Virus record (IMG/VR): IMGVR_UViG_3300033463_000060
DNA length: 29,404 bases
Strand: one strand, 5' to 3'
From: an uncultured virus (IMG/VR IMGVR_UViG_3300033463_000060)
Lineage: Duplodnaviria > Heunggongvirae > Uroviricota > Caudoviricetes
Under the pieces are notes generated by a model. The model had not been told where the DNA came from. It ran no database searches and saw nothing but the letters and a program-made list of their open reading frames with translations. Shown here in pieces: positions 1,153 to 7,827 of the stretch. Made by a program: the position numbers and the translations under genes. How positions within the stretch are numbered: position 1 is the stretch's first letter; each line of letters starts with the position of its first letter.

Positions 1153-1178
1153 ATCGGTCGAAAGAGCGAAATAAAGAA

Positions 1179-1209
1179 CGAACACGAATTTCACGAATTA
1201 AACGAATTA
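1179..1209 (+). repeat. Left 31-bp inverted repeat built of 9-mer (CACGAATT-like) units
   Basis: cgaacacgaatttcacgaattaaacgaatta; reverse complement matches 2458-2488 at 29/31. Confidence 0.9.
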
Positions 1210-1240
1210 TGACGATAATGACGAAAAAAGTGACGAATTG

Positions 1241-1272
1241 TTTGGTTGTATGGATAATTATGCTTATCTTTG
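1241..1272 (+). promoter_or_regulatory. Canonical Bacteroidetes primary-sigma promoter (-33 TTTG / -7 TAnnTTTG)
   Basis: TTTG at 1241-1244, 20-bp spacer, TATCTTTG at 1265-1272. Confidence 0.85.
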
Positions 1273-1276
1273 CAGC

Positions 1277-1329
1277 GTCAAATCAAATTAGCGACACGAA
1301 GTCGCTGCTCAACCGAGGCAGCGTTTTTT
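1277..1329 (+). terminator. C4-type target site 1 with overlapping antiterminator and intrinsic terminator
   Basis: Target gtcaaatcaaattagc (1277-1292). Hairpin AGCGAC-acgaa-GTCGCT (1290-1306) is mutually exclusive with CGCTGC...GCAGCG-TTTTTT (1303-1329). Confidence 0.75.
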
Positions 1330-1388
1330 GTGGCCATACATCGTTGGTAGAGAAAAGCGAACCCCTGCAAAGGGCGAACTATATTCTC

Positions 1389-1463
1389 GGCGGCAACCGC
1401 GTTGGGTACTGGAAACAGCCCAAGGTCTCAGCTAATTTGAACCTGACAGCGCGTAGTGCCGCC
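1389..1463 (+). ncRNA. C4/CI-like antisense RNA (cloverleaf)
   Basis: Closing stem ggcggca/tgccgcc; hairpin ttggg-ta-ctg-GAAA-cag-cccaa; hairpin with loop gctaatt; single-stranded tgacag. The segment gctaatttga...tgac is complementary to flanking gtca...aattagc sites. Confidence 0.75.
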
Positions 1464-1500
1464 GTTCTTTTATTGTCAAACGTCAAATCAGATTAGCAAA

Positions 1501-2460
1501 ATGGAACAGGACATTATTTACAACGAGGACTGCTTGCAGGGCTTGAAGCACCTGCCTGACAACAGCGTCGATTGCTGCATCACGTCGCCGCCTTATTACG
1601 CCCTGCGTGACTATGGTGTAGAGGGTCAGATTGGTTTGGAGGAAACTCCGCAGCAGTACATCGACCGACTGACCGAGGTATTCATGGAAGTGCATCGGGT
1701 ATTGAAGCCAGAGGGCACGCTGTGGATAAACATCGGCGATAGTTACAACGGCAACAAGAAGGGCAACACCGAGACGAACAAGAACAAAAAGGTCGCCGAG
1801 ACCAGCCACTTCGAGAAGAAACTTTGGAAGGAGTGTAAGCAGAAAGACCTAATCGGCATACCTTGGATGCTGGCGTTCTCGTTACGCAATGAGGGATGGT
1901 ATCTGCGGCAGGACATCATTTGGAACAAGCCGAATGTGATGCCTGAACCAGCCACCGACCGATGCGTCAAGGCTCACGAGTATATATTCCTGCTATCAAA
2001 GTCGGAGCGTTACTATTTCGACTACGAGCAAATCCAAGAGGAAGCGACAACGCATGAGAACCGCCCCGCTGGTGTCGTTTGCAATCGCAAGTTCGGCTAC
2101 GACAGCAAGCAGAACCAGCACCCCGAAGCCTATCTGATGTCGTCAGCCGACAAGACTGGCGAAGTGACCGAGGCAGATATGCCGACGGGCAAGCGAAACA
2201 AGCGCGACGTGTGGTCGGTCAATACGAAGCCCGACCTTAACGCTCACTTCGCAGTCTATCCCGAAGAACTCATTCGGCCTTGCATCCTCGCTGGTTGTCC
2301 GAAAGACGGCATCGTGCTCGACCCGTTCATGGGAAGCGGTACAACGGCTCGCGCCGCCCGTCGCTGGGGTCGGCATTACGTCGGCTTTGAACTCAATCCC
2401 GATTACGTCAAAATTATCGAGAGAAAAGTGCAAGTCGCCGTTGACCTCTTTGCAGAGTAA
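1501..2460 (+). CDS. Site-specific DNA methyltransferase (N4-cytosine/N6-adenine, beta class)
   Basis: IYNEDCL, ITSPPYY, WYLRQDIIWNKPN, HFAVYPEEL and VLDPFMGSGTT motifs. ATG at 1501. Confidence 0.92.
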   Translation: MEQDIIYNEDCLQGLKHLPDNSVDCCITSPPYYALRDYGVEGQIGLEETPQQYIDRLTEVFMEVHRVLKPEGTLWINIGDSYNGNKKGNTETNKNKKVAETSHFEKKLWKECKQKDLIGIPWMLAFSLRNEGWYLRQDIIWNKPNVMPEPATDRCVKAHEYIFLLSKSERYYFDYEQIQEEATTHENRPAGVVCNRKFGYDSKQNQHPEAYLMSSADKTGEVTEADMPTGKRNKRDVWSVNTKPDLNAHFAVYPEELIRPCILAGCPKDGIVLDPFMGSGTTARAARRWGRHYVGFELNPDYVKIIERKVQVAVDLFAE

Positions 2461-2614: not shown

Positions 2615-3098
2615 ATGACAAAAGAACAATTACAAGAAAGGCAGCGTCAACATGCCCGACTTCCGCGAGTGGTGCGCCCTGCTCGAAAAGCACGGCTACC
2701 AGAACTTCCTCGCACCCCAGTTCCCCTACCCCTGGGGCAAGGACAAGCGCGACAAGAAGACCAAGCCTGGCATACTGAACTCGAAGCACTACGGCGTGGC
2801 CCAGAACCGCGAACGGGTCTATATGCTCTCCGTGCGCCGCGACATCCTCGGACCCTCTGAAAGAGTTGCGGGCGAATACTCACCCGCGACCCAGTACGAG
2901 TTCCCCCGACCCTTCGCCCTCGACACCTGCATTGCCGACGTGCTGGAGGACAACGTGGACGAGCGCTTCTTCCTGAAGCCCGACTCGGTCATCAAGTTCC
3001 TCACCGTCAACGAGGCCACCGACGGCAGCGACATTCACTATATGGTAACGGACCACAAACTGACGGATGAGGAAATCAGGGAGGCAAGGAAGGGATGA
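2615..3098 (+). pseudogene. C5-cytosine DNA methyltransferase relic (motif VIII plus start of variable region only)
   Basis: LNSKHYGVAQNRERVY and IADVLEDNVDERFFL are present in 2652..3098. No FxGxG, PC, ENV or motif IX/X. An upstream ATG at 2615 with a good leader is out of frame. Confidence 0.7.
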
Positions 3099-3152
3099 GT
3101 TTTTTACGAACACGAATTACACGAATTTTTCATTAACAAACAATTAGGCGAT

Positions 3153-3461
3153 ATGAACAACGAACAAGAGAAAAGGACTGCGCCGAAGTTCGACGCAAAG
3201 AAGAGTAGTAAGACGGGCGACGTGCTCGCCTCGTTGATAACCGGCACGATTGCGAAGACCCAACCGCAGTCGATAGCCGAGGGCTTGCTGATGATGACGC
3301 TGGCTATTGGCCGGACGTTGCAGGTGCTTGGCACGATTATGGGCTGCGACCCGAAAATCATGTGCAAGGACTTCTGTGCAAGTCTGACCAAGTATTTCGA
3401 GATGGGCGGTGACGGACGCATTGACGATATTGCAGCCGCTATGAAGCAAAAAGGTAGTTAA
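3153..3461 (+). CDS. Hypothetical protein
   Basis: 102-aa ORF with AT-rich leader ending ttaggcgatATG. Confidence 0.75.
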   Translation: MNNEQEKRTAPKFDAKKSSKTGDVLASLITGTIAKTQPQSIAEGLLMMTLAIGRTLQVLGTIMGCDPKIMCKDFCASLTKYFEMGGDGRIDDIAAAMKQKGS

Positions 3462-3482
3462 TCTATTAAACATTTAGGCGAT

Positions 3483-3983
3483 ATGAACAACAACATGAAG
3501 AATTATCCCTCACTCGAAAACTTAGAGGGTAAGACAGTGGACGAGCTGATTGCATTACGTCAGCAACTTCGTGAAGTGCGCGACAATCAGCGCGTGACGA
3601 TAGCCGAGGAGATTACGGCAAAACAAAACGAACTCCGACGCGAGAGTATTAACGAACGCCGCATCTTTGACATTCAACTGAACGAACTGAAACGCCAGTT
3701 GGAAGAGATAGGCGACAAGATGGGCGCACCTGCCATGAGAGTCAAGGCCGCAGAACTCCGCGATAAGATTAGCGAACTGAAGTACCAGTTCAACATCAAG
3801 GTTGCCGAGCGCGACCATCGTGAATGTGTCTATGCCAACGAGCGAGTACGTCGCCAGTCGCAAAGCCAGCTCGACTACGAGAACGCAGAGATTGAGGTCT
3901 GCAAGGCCATCCGCGACAAGGACGGATTCAGCCAGTTAGGTTTCAAACAGCGTAAAGACAATGGCGAAGAAGGTCAACAGTAA
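3483..3983 (+). CDS. Hypothetical coiled-coil protein
   Basis: 166-aa E/R/K/L-rich ORF with the same leader as 3153. Confidence 0.8.
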   Translation: MNNNMKNYPSLENLEGKTVDELIALRQQLREVRDNQRVTIAEEITAKQNELRRESINERRIFDIQLNELKRQLEEIGDKMGAPAMRVKAAELRDKISELKYQFNIKVAERDHRECVYANERVRRQSQSQLDYENAEIEVCKAIRDKDGFSQLGFKQRKDNGEEGQQ

Positions 3984-4715: not shown

Positions 4716-4763
4716 TCGTGTCGATTTATGCAGATTCGTGTCGATTCGTGTCGATTCGTGTTC
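4713..4763. repeat. 10-bp tandem repeat (GATTCGTGTC) starting at a stop codon
   Basis: taatcgtgtcgatttatgcagattcgtgtcgattcgtgtcgattcgtgttc. Confidence 0.8.
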
Positions 4764-5154: not shown

Positions 5155-5661
5155 ATGGCAGAATTGAAACTCAAAATCAAGAAACAGCTGATGAAGCGCA
5201 AGGTGGACGGCGCAACGCTCACGGGCTACATCGGCAAGGTAATTACCAACGGACGCAAGTCGTTCGACGAAATCGCCCGCGCCTCGGCCAAGAACACCAC
5301 GCTGCACCCCAAGGAGGCCTCGCTGGCCGCAGAGCTGCTGCTGGAGGGCGTCGCCGAGCAGTTGCAGCAGGGCTACATCGTGGACATGGGGCCGCTGGGC
5401 GTCATCACCCCCGCCGTGAACACCCCGTGGAAGCAGGATGCCGACGAGCTGCAGCTCAGCGAGATGCGCCCGAAGGTGAACTACAAAGCCTCGGACGGCG
5501 TGATGGCTGCCGTGAAGAGCGCCAGCCTGGCCTGGGCCACGCAGAATGACGAGCAGAACGGCACCGAGGCTCCCGCTGGCGACGACGACGTAACCACGCC
5601 CAACACCGAGAACCCCGGGCAGGGCGGCGACGGCGGCCAGGGCGACGGAGGCATCGAATGA
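5155..5661 (+). CDS. HU-related (histone-like) DNA-binding protein, Bacteroidetes type
   Basis: SFDEIAR..AKNTTLHPKE, QLQQGYIVDMGPLG, and a Gly/acidic tail (PGQGGDGGQGDGGIE). ATG at 5155 follows an A-rich leader. Confidence 0.8.
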   Translation: MAELKLKIKKQLMKRKVDGATLTGYIGKVITNGRKSFDEIARASAKNTTLHPKEASLAAELLLEGVAEQLQQGYIVDMGPLGVITPAVNTPWKQDADELQLSEMRPKVNYKASDGVMAAVKSASLAWATQNDEQNGTEAPAGDDDVTTPNTENPGQGGDGGQGDGGIE

Positions 5662-5724: not shown

Positions 5725-5762
5725 CAAAAACAATTTTTTAGGCGATATTTTTTAAAGGCGAT

Positions 5763-6287
5763 ATGAAAATAACAAGACAATGGGCGATGCCCTCGATGCA
5801 CACGTTCACGATTGAACCGATACGGCAACTGATATGTCGGTACGTCAAGGACGGCAAGGGATGGATTGACCCCTTTGCTGGCGAGAACAGCCCAGCGGAG
5901 ATTACCAACGACCTCAATCCAGAGAAGCCTGCCAAGTACCACATGCACGCTCTCGACTTCGCAAAGATGCTCGACGGGCAATACGACGGCTGTCTGTTTG
6001 ACCCTCCGTATTCGCTGACACAGGTCAAGGAGTGCTATGCAAGCATCGGCTGTGAGGACTTCATGTCGCAGGACGCAAGCCATTTTCCTTACGACATCAA
6101 GCGCGAGATAGCCAAGCGTATTAAGCCCAACGGCATCGTCATCAGTTGCGGTTGGAATAGCGGCGGTTTCGGCAAGACGCTCGGCTTCGAGATGATAGAG
6201 ATACTGCTCGTTCCTCATGGCCGCACCCACAACGACACCATCGTGACGGTCGAGCGTAAAGTACCAACATTATTCGATAACGTATGA
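5763..6287 (+). CDS. Small adenine-specific DNA methyltransferase
   Basis: WIDPFAG (motif I), LFDPPYS (motif IV) and EILLVPHG..HNDTIVTVE. Confidence 0.85.
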   Translation: MKITRQWAMPSMHTFTIEPIRQLICRYVKDGKGWIDPFAGENSPAEITNDLNPEKPAKYHMHALDFAKMLDGQYDGCLFDPPYSLTQVKECYASIGCEDFMSQDASHFPYDIKREIAKRIKPNGIVISCGWNSGGFGKTLGFEMIEILLVPHGRTHNDTIVTVERKVPTLFDNV

Positions 6288-6493
6288 AAGAAATCGTAAT
6301 CACACTGGCCGACATCATCGGTTGGGCCATGTTCATAGGGCTGTGCGCCATCGTGCTCGCCCTCGTCATAGCCGCCGTTGGCTTCATGCTGTTCATCGCG
6401 TGGCAAATCGTCTGCGAAGTGTTCAGCATCGGCAAAGGCGAGACGTTCATCGTCACACCCAAACTGCCACCGCCACCACCTCCGAAGAAATAA
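6284..6493 (+). CDS. Small membrane protein
   Basis: ATGA overlap region with the upstream gene, long hydrophobic stretch and poly-Pro tail. Confidence 0.65.
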   Translation: MKEIVITLADIIGWAMFIGLCAIVLALVIAAVGFMLFIAWQIVCEVFSIGKGETFIVTPKLPPPPPPKK

Positions 6494-6538
6494 TCCGCTC
6501 AATCCGTGAAATTCGTGTTCAAACAATAAAACAACCCT

Positions 6539-7194
6539 ATGGCAAAAGACTGGAACGGCAACGCCGGCAGCATCTTCAAGACGCTCGGCGCATCGAACCA
6601 CACCGAGAACGAACGCCAGGCCGACGACTTCTACGCCACCGACCCCGTGGCCATCGACCTGCTGCTCGACTATCCCCACATCCACATGCCCCACGGCGTA
6701 TGGGAACCATCCTGCGGCAGCGGCTGTCTCAGCCAGCGACTGCGCCAGCGCGGCCACCACGTCGTATCAACCGACCTTGTGGATCGCGGCTACGGAGTGG
6801 GGGGGTAAACTTTTTCGAGCAACAGACGATGCCCGACCACTGCCAGGCCATCGTCACCAATCCCCCCTACAAGTTCGCCACCGAGTACGTCATCCACGCC
6901 CTCCGACTGCTGCCCACCGACGGACTGCTCGCCCTCTTCCTGAAGACCACCTTCGCCGAGGGCAAGGAACGCTACCAGCGCATCTTCGGAGTGACACCCC
7001 CCGCACTCATCCTGCAATGCTCCGAGCGAGTGCTCTGCGCCAAGAACGCCGAATTTGACAAGATGCGCCAGGCAGGCGGCTCCGCAGTCAGCTACGCATG
7101 GTGGGTGTGGCGCAAGGGCTGGCGTGGCGACACCCACCTCGACTGGATAAACCACCCCTCGGCGCAATATGCGAAACAGTTAGAATTGTTTTAA
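6539..7194 (+). CDS. N6-adenine DNA methyltransferase interrupted at a G7 tract (frameshifted/phase-variable)
   Basis: DFYATDP and WEPSCGSG lie in 6539..6808; IVTNPPY and YAWWVW lie in the -1 frame ending at 7194. G8 instead of G7 at 6799-6805 would fuse them as YGVGGVNFF. Confidence 0.85.
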
Positions 7195-7195
7195 A
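7109..7195 (+). repeat. 87-bp direct repeat, copy 1 (3' end of MTase)
   Basis: Matches 7741-7827 at 86/87. Confidence 0.95.
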
Positions 7196-7208
7196 TGAGC
7201 AGACGAAT

Positions 7209-7613
7209 ATGACTTACGACAATGCAATCATCATCAACGGCGAAGTGTACGTGCTCGACGATGGCTTCGACGAAAGCAACGACTGCGAAGGCTGTGCGCT
7301 GCGTGACAAATGCTGTGGCGGTTTTGATCTGATATGCTCCACGCTGTTCGACGCAGGGCAGGGCAAGCACTTCATCAAGGCCGACATGCCCGAACCCGTC
7401 TTCTGGCACAAGGGCGAGAACCCGCCCAGCGACGACCGCCCCGTGATAGGCTATTGGACCGACTACCCAGAAGAGGGATGGACTGAGCCGTTGTACTACA
7501 GCAACGGCGAGTGGTACAATGCCGACGAGAACGACTGGGCAAGTCAGCGAAAGGGTGGCCCCGACTTTTGGATAGACCGACCGCAGTACGATAAGGATGA
7601 ACACGAGGAGTAG
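7209..7613 (+). CDS. Hypothetical phage protein (CxxC N-terminal part; W-rich DUF551-like C-terminal part)
   Basis: ATG at 7209; DCEGCALRDKCC and WHKGENPPSDDRPV...FWIDRP. Confidence 0.7.
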   Translation: MTYDNAIIINGEVYVLDDGFDESNDCEGCALRDKCCGGFDLICSTLFDAGQGKHFIKADMPEPVFWHKGENPPSDDRPVIGYWTDYPEEGWTEPLYYSNGEWYNADENDWASQRKGGPDFWIDRPQYDKDEHEE

Positions 7614-7740: not shown

Positions 7741-7827
7741 GGCGCAAGGGCTGGCGTGGCGACACCCACCTCGACTGGATTAACCACCCCTCGGCGCAAT
7801 ATGCGAAACAGTTAGAATTGTTTTAAA
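7741..7827 (+). repeat. 87-bp direct repeat, copy 2
   Basis: Duplicate of 7109-7195 with one a>t change. Confidence 0.95.

Follow-up and report, generated by a model that had tools for sequence, protein, structure and literature searches.

c4-type RNAs are textbook phage immunity elements that restrain antirepressors. In the immI regions of P1 and P7, the order of elements is reportedly a1 b1 – c4 – a2 b2 – icd – ant, with c4 released from its precursor by RNase P and repression resulting in premature termination. Termination in P4 is largely Rho-dependent and coupled to translation, rather than a switch between a hairpin and a terminator, and in the attenuators of pT181 and pIP501 a small RNA acts on the nascent leader and blocks an upstream hairpin, upon which the terminator forms. 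Phage anti-restriction DNA modification can be under strict post-transcriptional control, as for mom/com of Mu, presumably since untimely expression is harmful. In Gifsy-1, where the order is IsrK – STnc1160 – orf45/anrP, STnc1160 is processed from the read-through transcript, and the authors of that study raise, without demonstrating it, a modulation of the leader terminator by STnc1160 in the manner of the P4 CI RNA (PMC4825925). Here we analyze a 29,404-nucleotide (nt) stretch of DNA from an uncultured Caudoviricetes virus (IMG/VR record IMGVR_UViG_3300033463_000060), referred to in its entirety as the window and providing all coordinates below unless another locus is named, in which a c4-type RNA flanked by two copies of its predicted target lies ahead of a DNA methyltransferase gene; the identical RNA is fused to a second, unrelated DNA methyltransferase elsewhere.

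A c4-2 family RNA flanked by two target sites

The elements of the candidate module and the gene that follows it are listed here.

1241–1272, plus strand: putative Bacteroidetes-type promoter (TTTG at 1241–1244, a 20-nt spacer and TATCTTTG at 1265–1272), predicted by reading the sequence
1277–1292, plus strand: target site 1, GTCAAATCAAATTAGC, in which GTCA complements the c4 junction UGAC and TCAAATTAGC complements the c4 loop
1289–1307, plus strand: leader hairpin 1, UAGCGAC / GUCGCUG, a predicted fold of 7 pairs (1289–1295 with 1301–1307)
1303–1329, plus strand: intrinsic-terminator-like hairpin, CGCTGCT / GGCAGCG (stem 1303–1323, then T6 at 1324–1329)
1363–1374, plus strand: small hairpin with a GCAA loop between terminator and c4, read by eye
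1388–1466, plus strand: c4-2 family antisense RNA, with an outer 8-base-pair (bp) stem and a 4-bp stem around a GAAA-capped hairpin and a second hairpin
1482–1497, plus strand: target site 2, GTCAAATCAGATTAGC, at −19 to −4 relative to the methyltransferase start codon
1501–2460, plus strand: N4/N6 DNA methyltransferase (PF01555, 9e-55; phrog_67, 1.5e-80), whose relatives start at the same methionine

A sequence-only reading that preceded this analysis had placed the promoter, both sites, the hairpin, the terminator, the c4 RNA and the ATG of a DNA methyltransferase here, and we find every one of them in its place, the PF01555 match agreeing with the gene assignment. It had further proposed that the RNA is of the c4 type. 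Region 1388–1466 matches the Rfam c4-2 model (RF02944) with a score of 41.7 bits (E = 6.7e-6; gathering score, 41), the GAAA loop and three-way junction both being present, and this is the sole Rfam match at gathering threshold across the whole window. Rfam C4 (RF01695) and c4-a1b1, the two other models named in that reading, are not matched, nor is isrK (RF01394), in a search of 1000–1700 with all 4227 families at E ≤ 10; besides c4-2, this permissive search returns just PinT, at chance level (20.4 bits against 60). The c4 RNA is predicted to fold with −34.4 kcal/mol (z = −3.26), and one of 200 shuffled sequences folds as well. A tRNA-like reading of the region was rejected, as ARAGORN finds no tRNA. 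Judged by sequence comparison, 1388–1466 is a member of the known c4-2 RNA family, and the three-part switch around it appears to be of a known design, that of P1 c4, P4 CI and IsrK.

Apart from one mismatch, the two target sites are a direct repeat of 17 nt. The c4 bases that would pair with them are the second-hairpin loop, 1431–1440, and the junction that follows, 1444–1447; the loop is a perfect 10-nt complement of 1283–1292, and the single difference of site 2 from site 1 (A to G, at 1491) retains pairing as G-U. Site 2 ends three bases before the ATG at 1501. We find no further copy of the two-site pattern in the 29.4-kb window at ≤3 mismatches, with 7 of 100 shuffles containing at least two matches, and no other site copy in the 40.9-kb phage contig, G001, that holds the same sequence.

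Bacteroidetes promoters follow the consensus TTTG / TAnnTTTG. The elements at 1241–1272 fit it, and a sigma-70 promoter scan was set aside because its model is irrelevant for Bacteroidota promoters. Site 1 probably lies at the extreme 5′ end of the leader RNA. The AGCGAC/GTCGCT hairpin is lengthened to 7 pairs in the predicted fold, and its 5′ arm overlaps site 1 by 4 nt, while its 3′ arm overlaps the 7-nt 5′ arm of the terminator by 5 nt. In the small GCAA hairpin at 1363–1374, pairing is kept in a related locus (L217, below) via changes on both strands of the stem, two sequences being compared.

Structure and code covary among relatives

Relatives of the RNA were collected with a covariance model, R1, built from the window RNA with the Rfam structure and run on loci gathered by three degenerate patterns. 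Among viral contigs, the first pattern gave at least 118 stretches, of which 80 loci were examined, with 22 strong matches, and the second pattern gave 30 stretches, with 28 strong matches in 27 loci; 11 stretches in genome contigs gave 4 strong matches, all labelled Prevotellaceae, Prevotella or Alloprevotella. An exact 18-mer of the c4 hairpin recovered the window's own contig alone from the viral contigs. At least 39 distinct c4-2 RNAs were assembled in this way, drawn entirely from phage contigs and from genome records labelled Prevotellaceae. When 20 of the relative loci were returned to Rfam, 19 matched c4-2 at E ≤ 0.01 and 16 reached the gathering score or better (41 bits); L265 had no c4-2 match in this re-search. 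Scores are 38–45 bits in the subclade that includes the window and 61–71 bits in members with a short leader.

These relatives bear out the c4-type structure. In an alignment of 25 distinct rows, which was fitted to our own model R1 and leans toward structure, 95.3% of the cells are paired, compared to 31–50% in slid controls, and 15 of the 23 base pairs are changed on both sides; the covariation score is reached by none of 500 shuffles. Their common layout is that of the window, with a Bacteroidetes-type promoter, site 1, a hairpin and terminator, the c4 RNA, and site 2 at the start codon. An upstream complement of the loop or junction of at least 8 nt is found in 39/39 distinct relatives, a downstream loop complement of at least 8 nt and no more than 45 nt from c4 in 33/39, a −7 box no more than 25 nt ahead of site 1 in 38/39, an ATG that overlaps the downstream site or follows it within 8 nt in 31/39, and a long leader with the T-run of a terminator in 32/39.

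The sequence-only reading had given the RNA one upstream target and another at the start codon; that assignment extends to the family, with the loop and both targets covarying over the 39 distinct relatives. The c4 loop sequences are diverse, and both sites change along with the loop. Among 17 cognate sets, 11 contain an exact word of at least 7 nt that the upstream flank, the downstream flank and the loop complement have in common, compared to 3 of 272 non-cognate sets. This three-way word test was used in place of maximum-run complementarity with G-U pairs allowed, which was rejected as a cognate test since the distributions overlap (the upstream own mean is 10.8 versus 7.6). In L271, site 1 and site 2 differ at another position than in the window, and that difference, too, retains pairing as G-U. 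As a rule, site 1 exceeds site 2 in length and continues into the 5′ arm of hairpin 1, e.g., with ends in GCGG or GGGG. One relative, L273, holds two full c4-2 modules in tandem, 441 nt apart (1544–1623 and 1985–2064), each having a loop of its own and sites to match.

Methyltransferases and other cargo genes

The most telling comparison is with L217, a Prevotellaceae record. Its c4 RNA is 100% identical to that of the window, and the leader is 86% identical over window positions 1161–1503, and yet the module is fused exactly at the ATG to a methyltransferase that is unrelated to the 1501–2460 enzyme (phrog_11619, 3.9e-38) and is instead a homolog of the window gene at 5763–6287. In L217, the site moreover occurs a third time, without mismatch, 3 nt ahead of the ATG that starts the following open reading frame (ORF; 240 amino acids, no known family). 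On these sequence comparisons, two independent fusions to unrelated methyltransferases, together with the added site, argue that control of the gene was selected and is not accidental. The same c4 loop precedes proteins without a Pfam or PHROG family in L271 (at least 520 amino acids) and L265 (250 amino acids). One contig from run X1 bears the module and diverges after 1506, with an N-terminus that looks methyltransferase-like by eye over 12 residues, which are too few to count.

Other members of the family precede other genes. In a first set of 16 loci, the first downstream ORF encodes an antirepressor type in 7 (ANT with Bro-N or KilA-N, or Rha), a GIY-YIG protein in 1 and a protein without family in 8; in a second set of 19, there is 1 GIY-YIG protein and 18 are without family. 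No methyltransferase occurs among these 35 first downstream genes. The sequence-only reading held that such RNAs normally repress icd/ant or kil, which agrees only in part with the relatives, given the 7 antirepressor types among the 35, and most of the remaining cargo has no known family. Further downstream, 43 of 54 ORFs were scanned, and HNH/NUMOD endonucleases were found in 6 loci, in addition to DUF723, a PAPS-reductase domain, one Ant and TnpB-like proteins, with no methyltransferase among the 43. In L247, L264, L259, L260, L263 and L274, a small ORF placed for control by c4 is followed by an HNH/NUMOD homing-endonuclease-type gene, and GIY-YIG or DUF723 proteins follow it in others. ANT, Bro-N, KilA-N and Rha have no match among the 25 window ORFs scanned.

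Methyltransferases of this kind also occur away from the module. We find no c4 in 20 sources (14 metagenome loci and L002–L007), 18 of which hold relatives of the window methyltransferase that are up to 96% identical, and none in five other viral loci with methyltransferase relatives. A c4-type switch with DNA methyltransferases as its cargo appears, from these sequences, to be new; no account of c4-2 leaders or of a methyltransferase target was found in the searchable text of the literature, and the supplement of PMC5737381 may bear on both.

A predicted leader hairpin that overlaps site 1 and the terminator

The nascent leader is predicted to fold at 1289–1307 with −9.5 kcal/mol (z = −2.02), which falls to −5.2 kcal/mol once site 1 is blocked, and in L217 the stem of this hairpin is retained while its loop is changed. 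The first 12 long leaders are all predicted to form a nascent hairpin in which the 5′ arm includes the end of site 1 and the 3′ arm overlaps the 5′ arm of the terminator; with site 1 blocked, the hairpin energy of these leaders changes from a range of −7.5 to −11 kcal/mol to one of 0 to −5 kcal/mol, and the terminator remains. Both overlaps, with site 1 and with the terminator arm, are present in 29 of 33 leaders compared to 577 of 990 shuffles, and the mean loss of nascent structure upon site 1 blocking is 6.5 kcal/mol compared to 3.1 kcal/mol in shuffles. The hairpin sequesters at least 3 nt of the terminator arm in 21 of 28 long leaders. This modeled architecture fits c4-triggered termination, for which we hold the chances to be about even, and a leader hairpin predicted to bridge site 1 and the terminator would be new at the level of the family.

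A model for c4 control of the methyltransferase

We lean modestly toward the view that region 1241–1500 is a self-contained c4-2 RNA control module that gates the phage DNA methyltransferase. The host-type promoter would initiate transcription at about site 1, and polymerase that passes the leader terminator would transcribe c4, then site 2, and then the methyltransferase. Mature c4, presumably cut from this same transcript, would pair with site 2 via the second-hairpin loop and adjoining junction, masking the region immediately ahead of the ATG where ribosomes land and blocking translation. Translation starts in Bacteroidota rely little on Shine-Dalgarno pairing. On site 1 of new transcripts, c4 would open hairpin 1 and free the 5′ arm of the terminator, leading to more termination before c4. 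The expected outcome is negative feedback on both c4 and the methyltransferase, with a brief methyltransferase pulse upon infection of a naive cell and little methyltransferase in a lysogen, or in a cell where a phage of the same c4 code is already resident. A timed anti-restriction pulse of this kind seems plausible, and would be reasonable for a temperate phage.

Several observations weigh against this model. The Rfam score exceeds the threshold by just 0.7 bits. The terminator arm is sequestered over ≤2 nt in 7 of 28 leaders, and the overlap test rises moderately over its shuffles. The full-length minimum-energy fold holds the terminator in 12 of 12 leaders, whether or not site 1 is blocked, and thus antitermination would have to be kinetic; the contest between antiterminator and terminator advanced in the sequence-only reading survives in the overlap architecture and is lost in the minimum-energy fold, where the terminator stays with or without c4. 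Taken alone, the terminator scan is at chance level (4 found, 2.1 ± 1.5 expected), the leader fold is weak (z = −1.81, with 10 of 200 shuffles as good), and duplex energy, which was rejected as evidence, fails to single out the sites in this GC-rich window (−19.9 kcal/mol for site 1 and −16.8 kcal/mol for site 2, compared to −19.4 to −21.4 kcal/mol for ten other 30-nt windows); each of the three being weak alone, significance rests on the comparative data. In seven of the 39 relatives, the leader is short and lacks a terminator, and attenuation is therefore not essential for the family. A T-rich run comes after the closing stem of c4 and may on its own reduce read-through into the methyltransferase. 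Finally, metatranscriptome-labelled contigs that span 1261–1506 (X1), 1379–1509 (X4) and 1261–1481 (X5) show presence and not ends, strand or level, with DNA possibly in the libraries, and in the RNA runs the methyltransferase body is without coverage, with shares of 0.05–0.06.

It is possible, if doubtful, that the leader acts instead as an IsrK-type decoy. Its terminator would then be constitutive and end most transcripts, and the resulting RNA of about 50 nt, carrying site 1, would titrate c4 or open the read-through mRNA, turning methyltransferase translation on, with site 1 an activating element; this is partly compatible with gating by c4. A precedent, the sole related system with a tested leader, speaks for it and against our model, in that the short IsrK of Gifsy-1, ended at a Rho-independent terminator, activates in trans the otherwise translationally inactive read-through mRNA (PMC4825925), and the window leader is built like a small RNA, with a single-stranded 5′ seed, a hairpin and a thermodynamically favoured terminator. 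Hairpin 1 need not overlap the terminator arm in a decoy, whereas an overlap of at least 3 nt is the rule in the long leaders, and site 1 systematically reaches into the 5′ arm of hairpin 1; nor is there an isrK or c4-a1b1 match in Rfam at E ≤ 10. The short-leader relatives hold site 1 without a terminator, so there site 1 is not on a separate short RNA. In our analysis, the leader of the window could be a decoy, a sensor, or both.

That the module is merely an accidental neighbour, put beside the methyltransferase by cassette shuffling and serving another purpose (e.g., immunity directed at a different phage or at a gene beyond the window), with no selected control by c4, is in our judgment very unlikely. 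It is the reading suggested by the 20 sources without c4, i.e., 18 with methyltransferase relatives and two other loci, by the mosaic make-up of the region, whose cassettes have shared repeats at their boundaries, and by the many unrelated genes that the module precedes. It sits poorly, however, with the two modules of the window and L217, which both end exactly at a methyltransferase ATG with enzymes of different families, with the extra L217 site ahead of the next ORF, with a site 2 that departs from site 1 just by a pairing-preserving change, and with the lack of another target copy in the window or in G001. We give hardly any credence to a protein-coding explanation, in which an ORF at 1128–1496 (122 amino acids), which runs through leader and c4 to a stop 5 nt short of the methyltransferase ATG, would account for the conservation as that of a protein. 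This ORF is open in both the window and L217 (123 amino acids there), and in Gifsy-1 orf45 overlaps the processed small RNA (PMC4825925). The ORF was nonetheless rejected as coding, since window and L217 are 64% identical in protein compared to 86% in DNA, with changes that lack silent-position bias, and c4 is not crossed by any open frame in 17 of 39 relatives; the ORF start also lies upstream of the module promoter, with no in-frame ATG after 1277 by eye, and covariation of the RNA type accounts for the conservation.

Re-use of the module would make it a general gate for timing-sensitive genes, and possibly a route by which a temperate phage confines a DNA-modifying enzyme to the moment of entry. 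A wider proposal, which we consider unlikely, is that in rumen and gut Prevotellaceae phages the c4-2 module is a portable RNA lock, recombined exactly at the start codon of diverse DNA-acting cargo (methyltransferases, antirepressors, and possibly the small ORFs preceding homing-endonuclease-type genes). Such a lock would give an incoming phage a self-limiting pulse of DNA protection, and would enable a resident prophage of the same code to shut off the methyltransferase of a related phage that enters, exposing the DNA of the latter to restriction in a form of RNA-based exclusion that blocks anti-restriction. The natural code variants, with at least 39 loop/target combinations, constitute a test set for RNA-RNA specificity, and could be used as orthogonal regulators in Bacteroidota, where such tools are scarce. 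The predicted hairpin bridging site 1 with the terminator is relevant to a question raised in PMC4825925, whether a small RNA controls its own leader terminator.

Cassette boundaries and phage setting

The module and methyltransferase lie between two inverted repeat arms.

1179–1209, no strand assigned: left arm of a 31-nt inverted repeat, ACGAATT units with a 9-bp period, at the left cassette edge
2458–2488, no strand assigned: right arm of the inverted repeat, at the right cassette edge

The arms are 94% complementary, and a two-unit ACGAATT pattern has 11 matches compared to 1.98 expected. They look like shared boundary sequences where gene cassettes are swapped. The same inverted arms flank other cargo in L007 (2863–2896 and 3400–3439) and in L217 (~1270–1300 and 2886–2950), and more arm-type sequence occurs in the window at 3112–3127 and 6492–6516. 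An "empty" form is seen in runs X1, X5 and X8, where contigs have the two arms, left and right, separated by just 7–16 other letters.

Upstream of the module, a sliding-clamp gene ends at 1081. The window has further methyltransferase genes or fragments at 2652–3098, 5763–6287 and 6539–7194, and structural genes downstream, including one for a tape-measure protein; the clamp, methyltransferase and tape-measure or other structural genes mark the window as phage DNA. In IMG/VR contig L001 (G001), an integrase-type gene (PF13102, 1.2e-9) lies beside an HTH_3 protein upstream of the window start, and on the strength of these two neighbours the phage looks temperate. Its hosts appear to be rumen-type Prevotellaceae.

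Other features of the region are recorded here. Just past the clamp gene, two copies of a 22-nt element that includes the palindrome GGGGACTGTCCCC lie 40 bp apart, at 1087–1108 and 1127–1148, and could be an operator pair or hairpins. The ORF at 2652–3098, a C5-cytosine methyltransferase, covers PF00145 profile positions 138–231 alone and is thus a fragment. The third methyltransferase, at 6539–7194 (phrog_799), is split over two frames at a run of seven G at ~6793–6799, a frameshift or a phase-variable tract. A direct repeat of ~85 nt of its 3′ end, at ~7110–7196 and ~7742–7826, flanks the ORF at 7209–7613, as if this had been inserted with duplication. The start context TTAGGCGATATG recurs ahead of several small genes (3140–3156, 3470–3486 and 5745–5765), and an array of the TCGTGTCGAT type is found at 4717–4760. 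Beside a methyltransferase relative in L002, a tRNA match at 5392–5496 (46.2 bits) has a 40-nt insert in the anticodon-arm region.

Comparison with known systems

With P1 and P7 immI, the window shares a single transcript in which the antisense RNA stands between upstream copies of the target and further copies where translation of the following gene begins, along with pairing in two blocks, loop and junction, and codes that differ among relatives. It differs in that Rfam C4 (RF01695) and c4-a1b1 do not match it at E ≤ 10, the regulated gene is a DNA methyltransferase and not icd/ant, an intrinsic terminator is predicted between site 1 and c4, and the host belongs to Bacteroidota. The attenuator RNAs of pT181 and pIP501 come from the opposite strand of their target, whereas the regulator in the window is located downstream on the same strand, with short loop complementarity. 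Mu controls mom with the protein translational activator Com together with Dam/OxyR, in contrast to an antisense RNA.

The P4 CI RNA with seqA/seqC resembles the proposed mechanism in that an antisense RNA is processed from the leader, pairs with upstream and downstream copies, and causes premature termination (PMC4825925); the P4 target is a replication operon, in contrast, and there is no sequence relation to the window. The same source describes for Gifsy-1 a promoter, a short leader with a Rho-independent terminator, a small RNA processed from read-through, and the regulated gene, in the same order as predicted for the window, and in both the leader and small RNA carry complementary sequences (PMC4825925). 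The sequence families differ, with no isrK match in the window, and the short leader of Gifsy-1, when tested, activates an antirepressor-type gene (PMC4825925); any role of the window leader is predicted. The nearest described relative is the Rfam c4-2 motif (RF02944; Weinberg et al. 2017, PMC5737381), with which the window shares a score at or above the curated threshold, a three-way junction with a GAAA-capped hairpin and a phage context. Within that family, the window belongs to a subclade at the edge, scoring well below the short-leader members, and is distinguished from these by its long leader with a hairpin and terminator.

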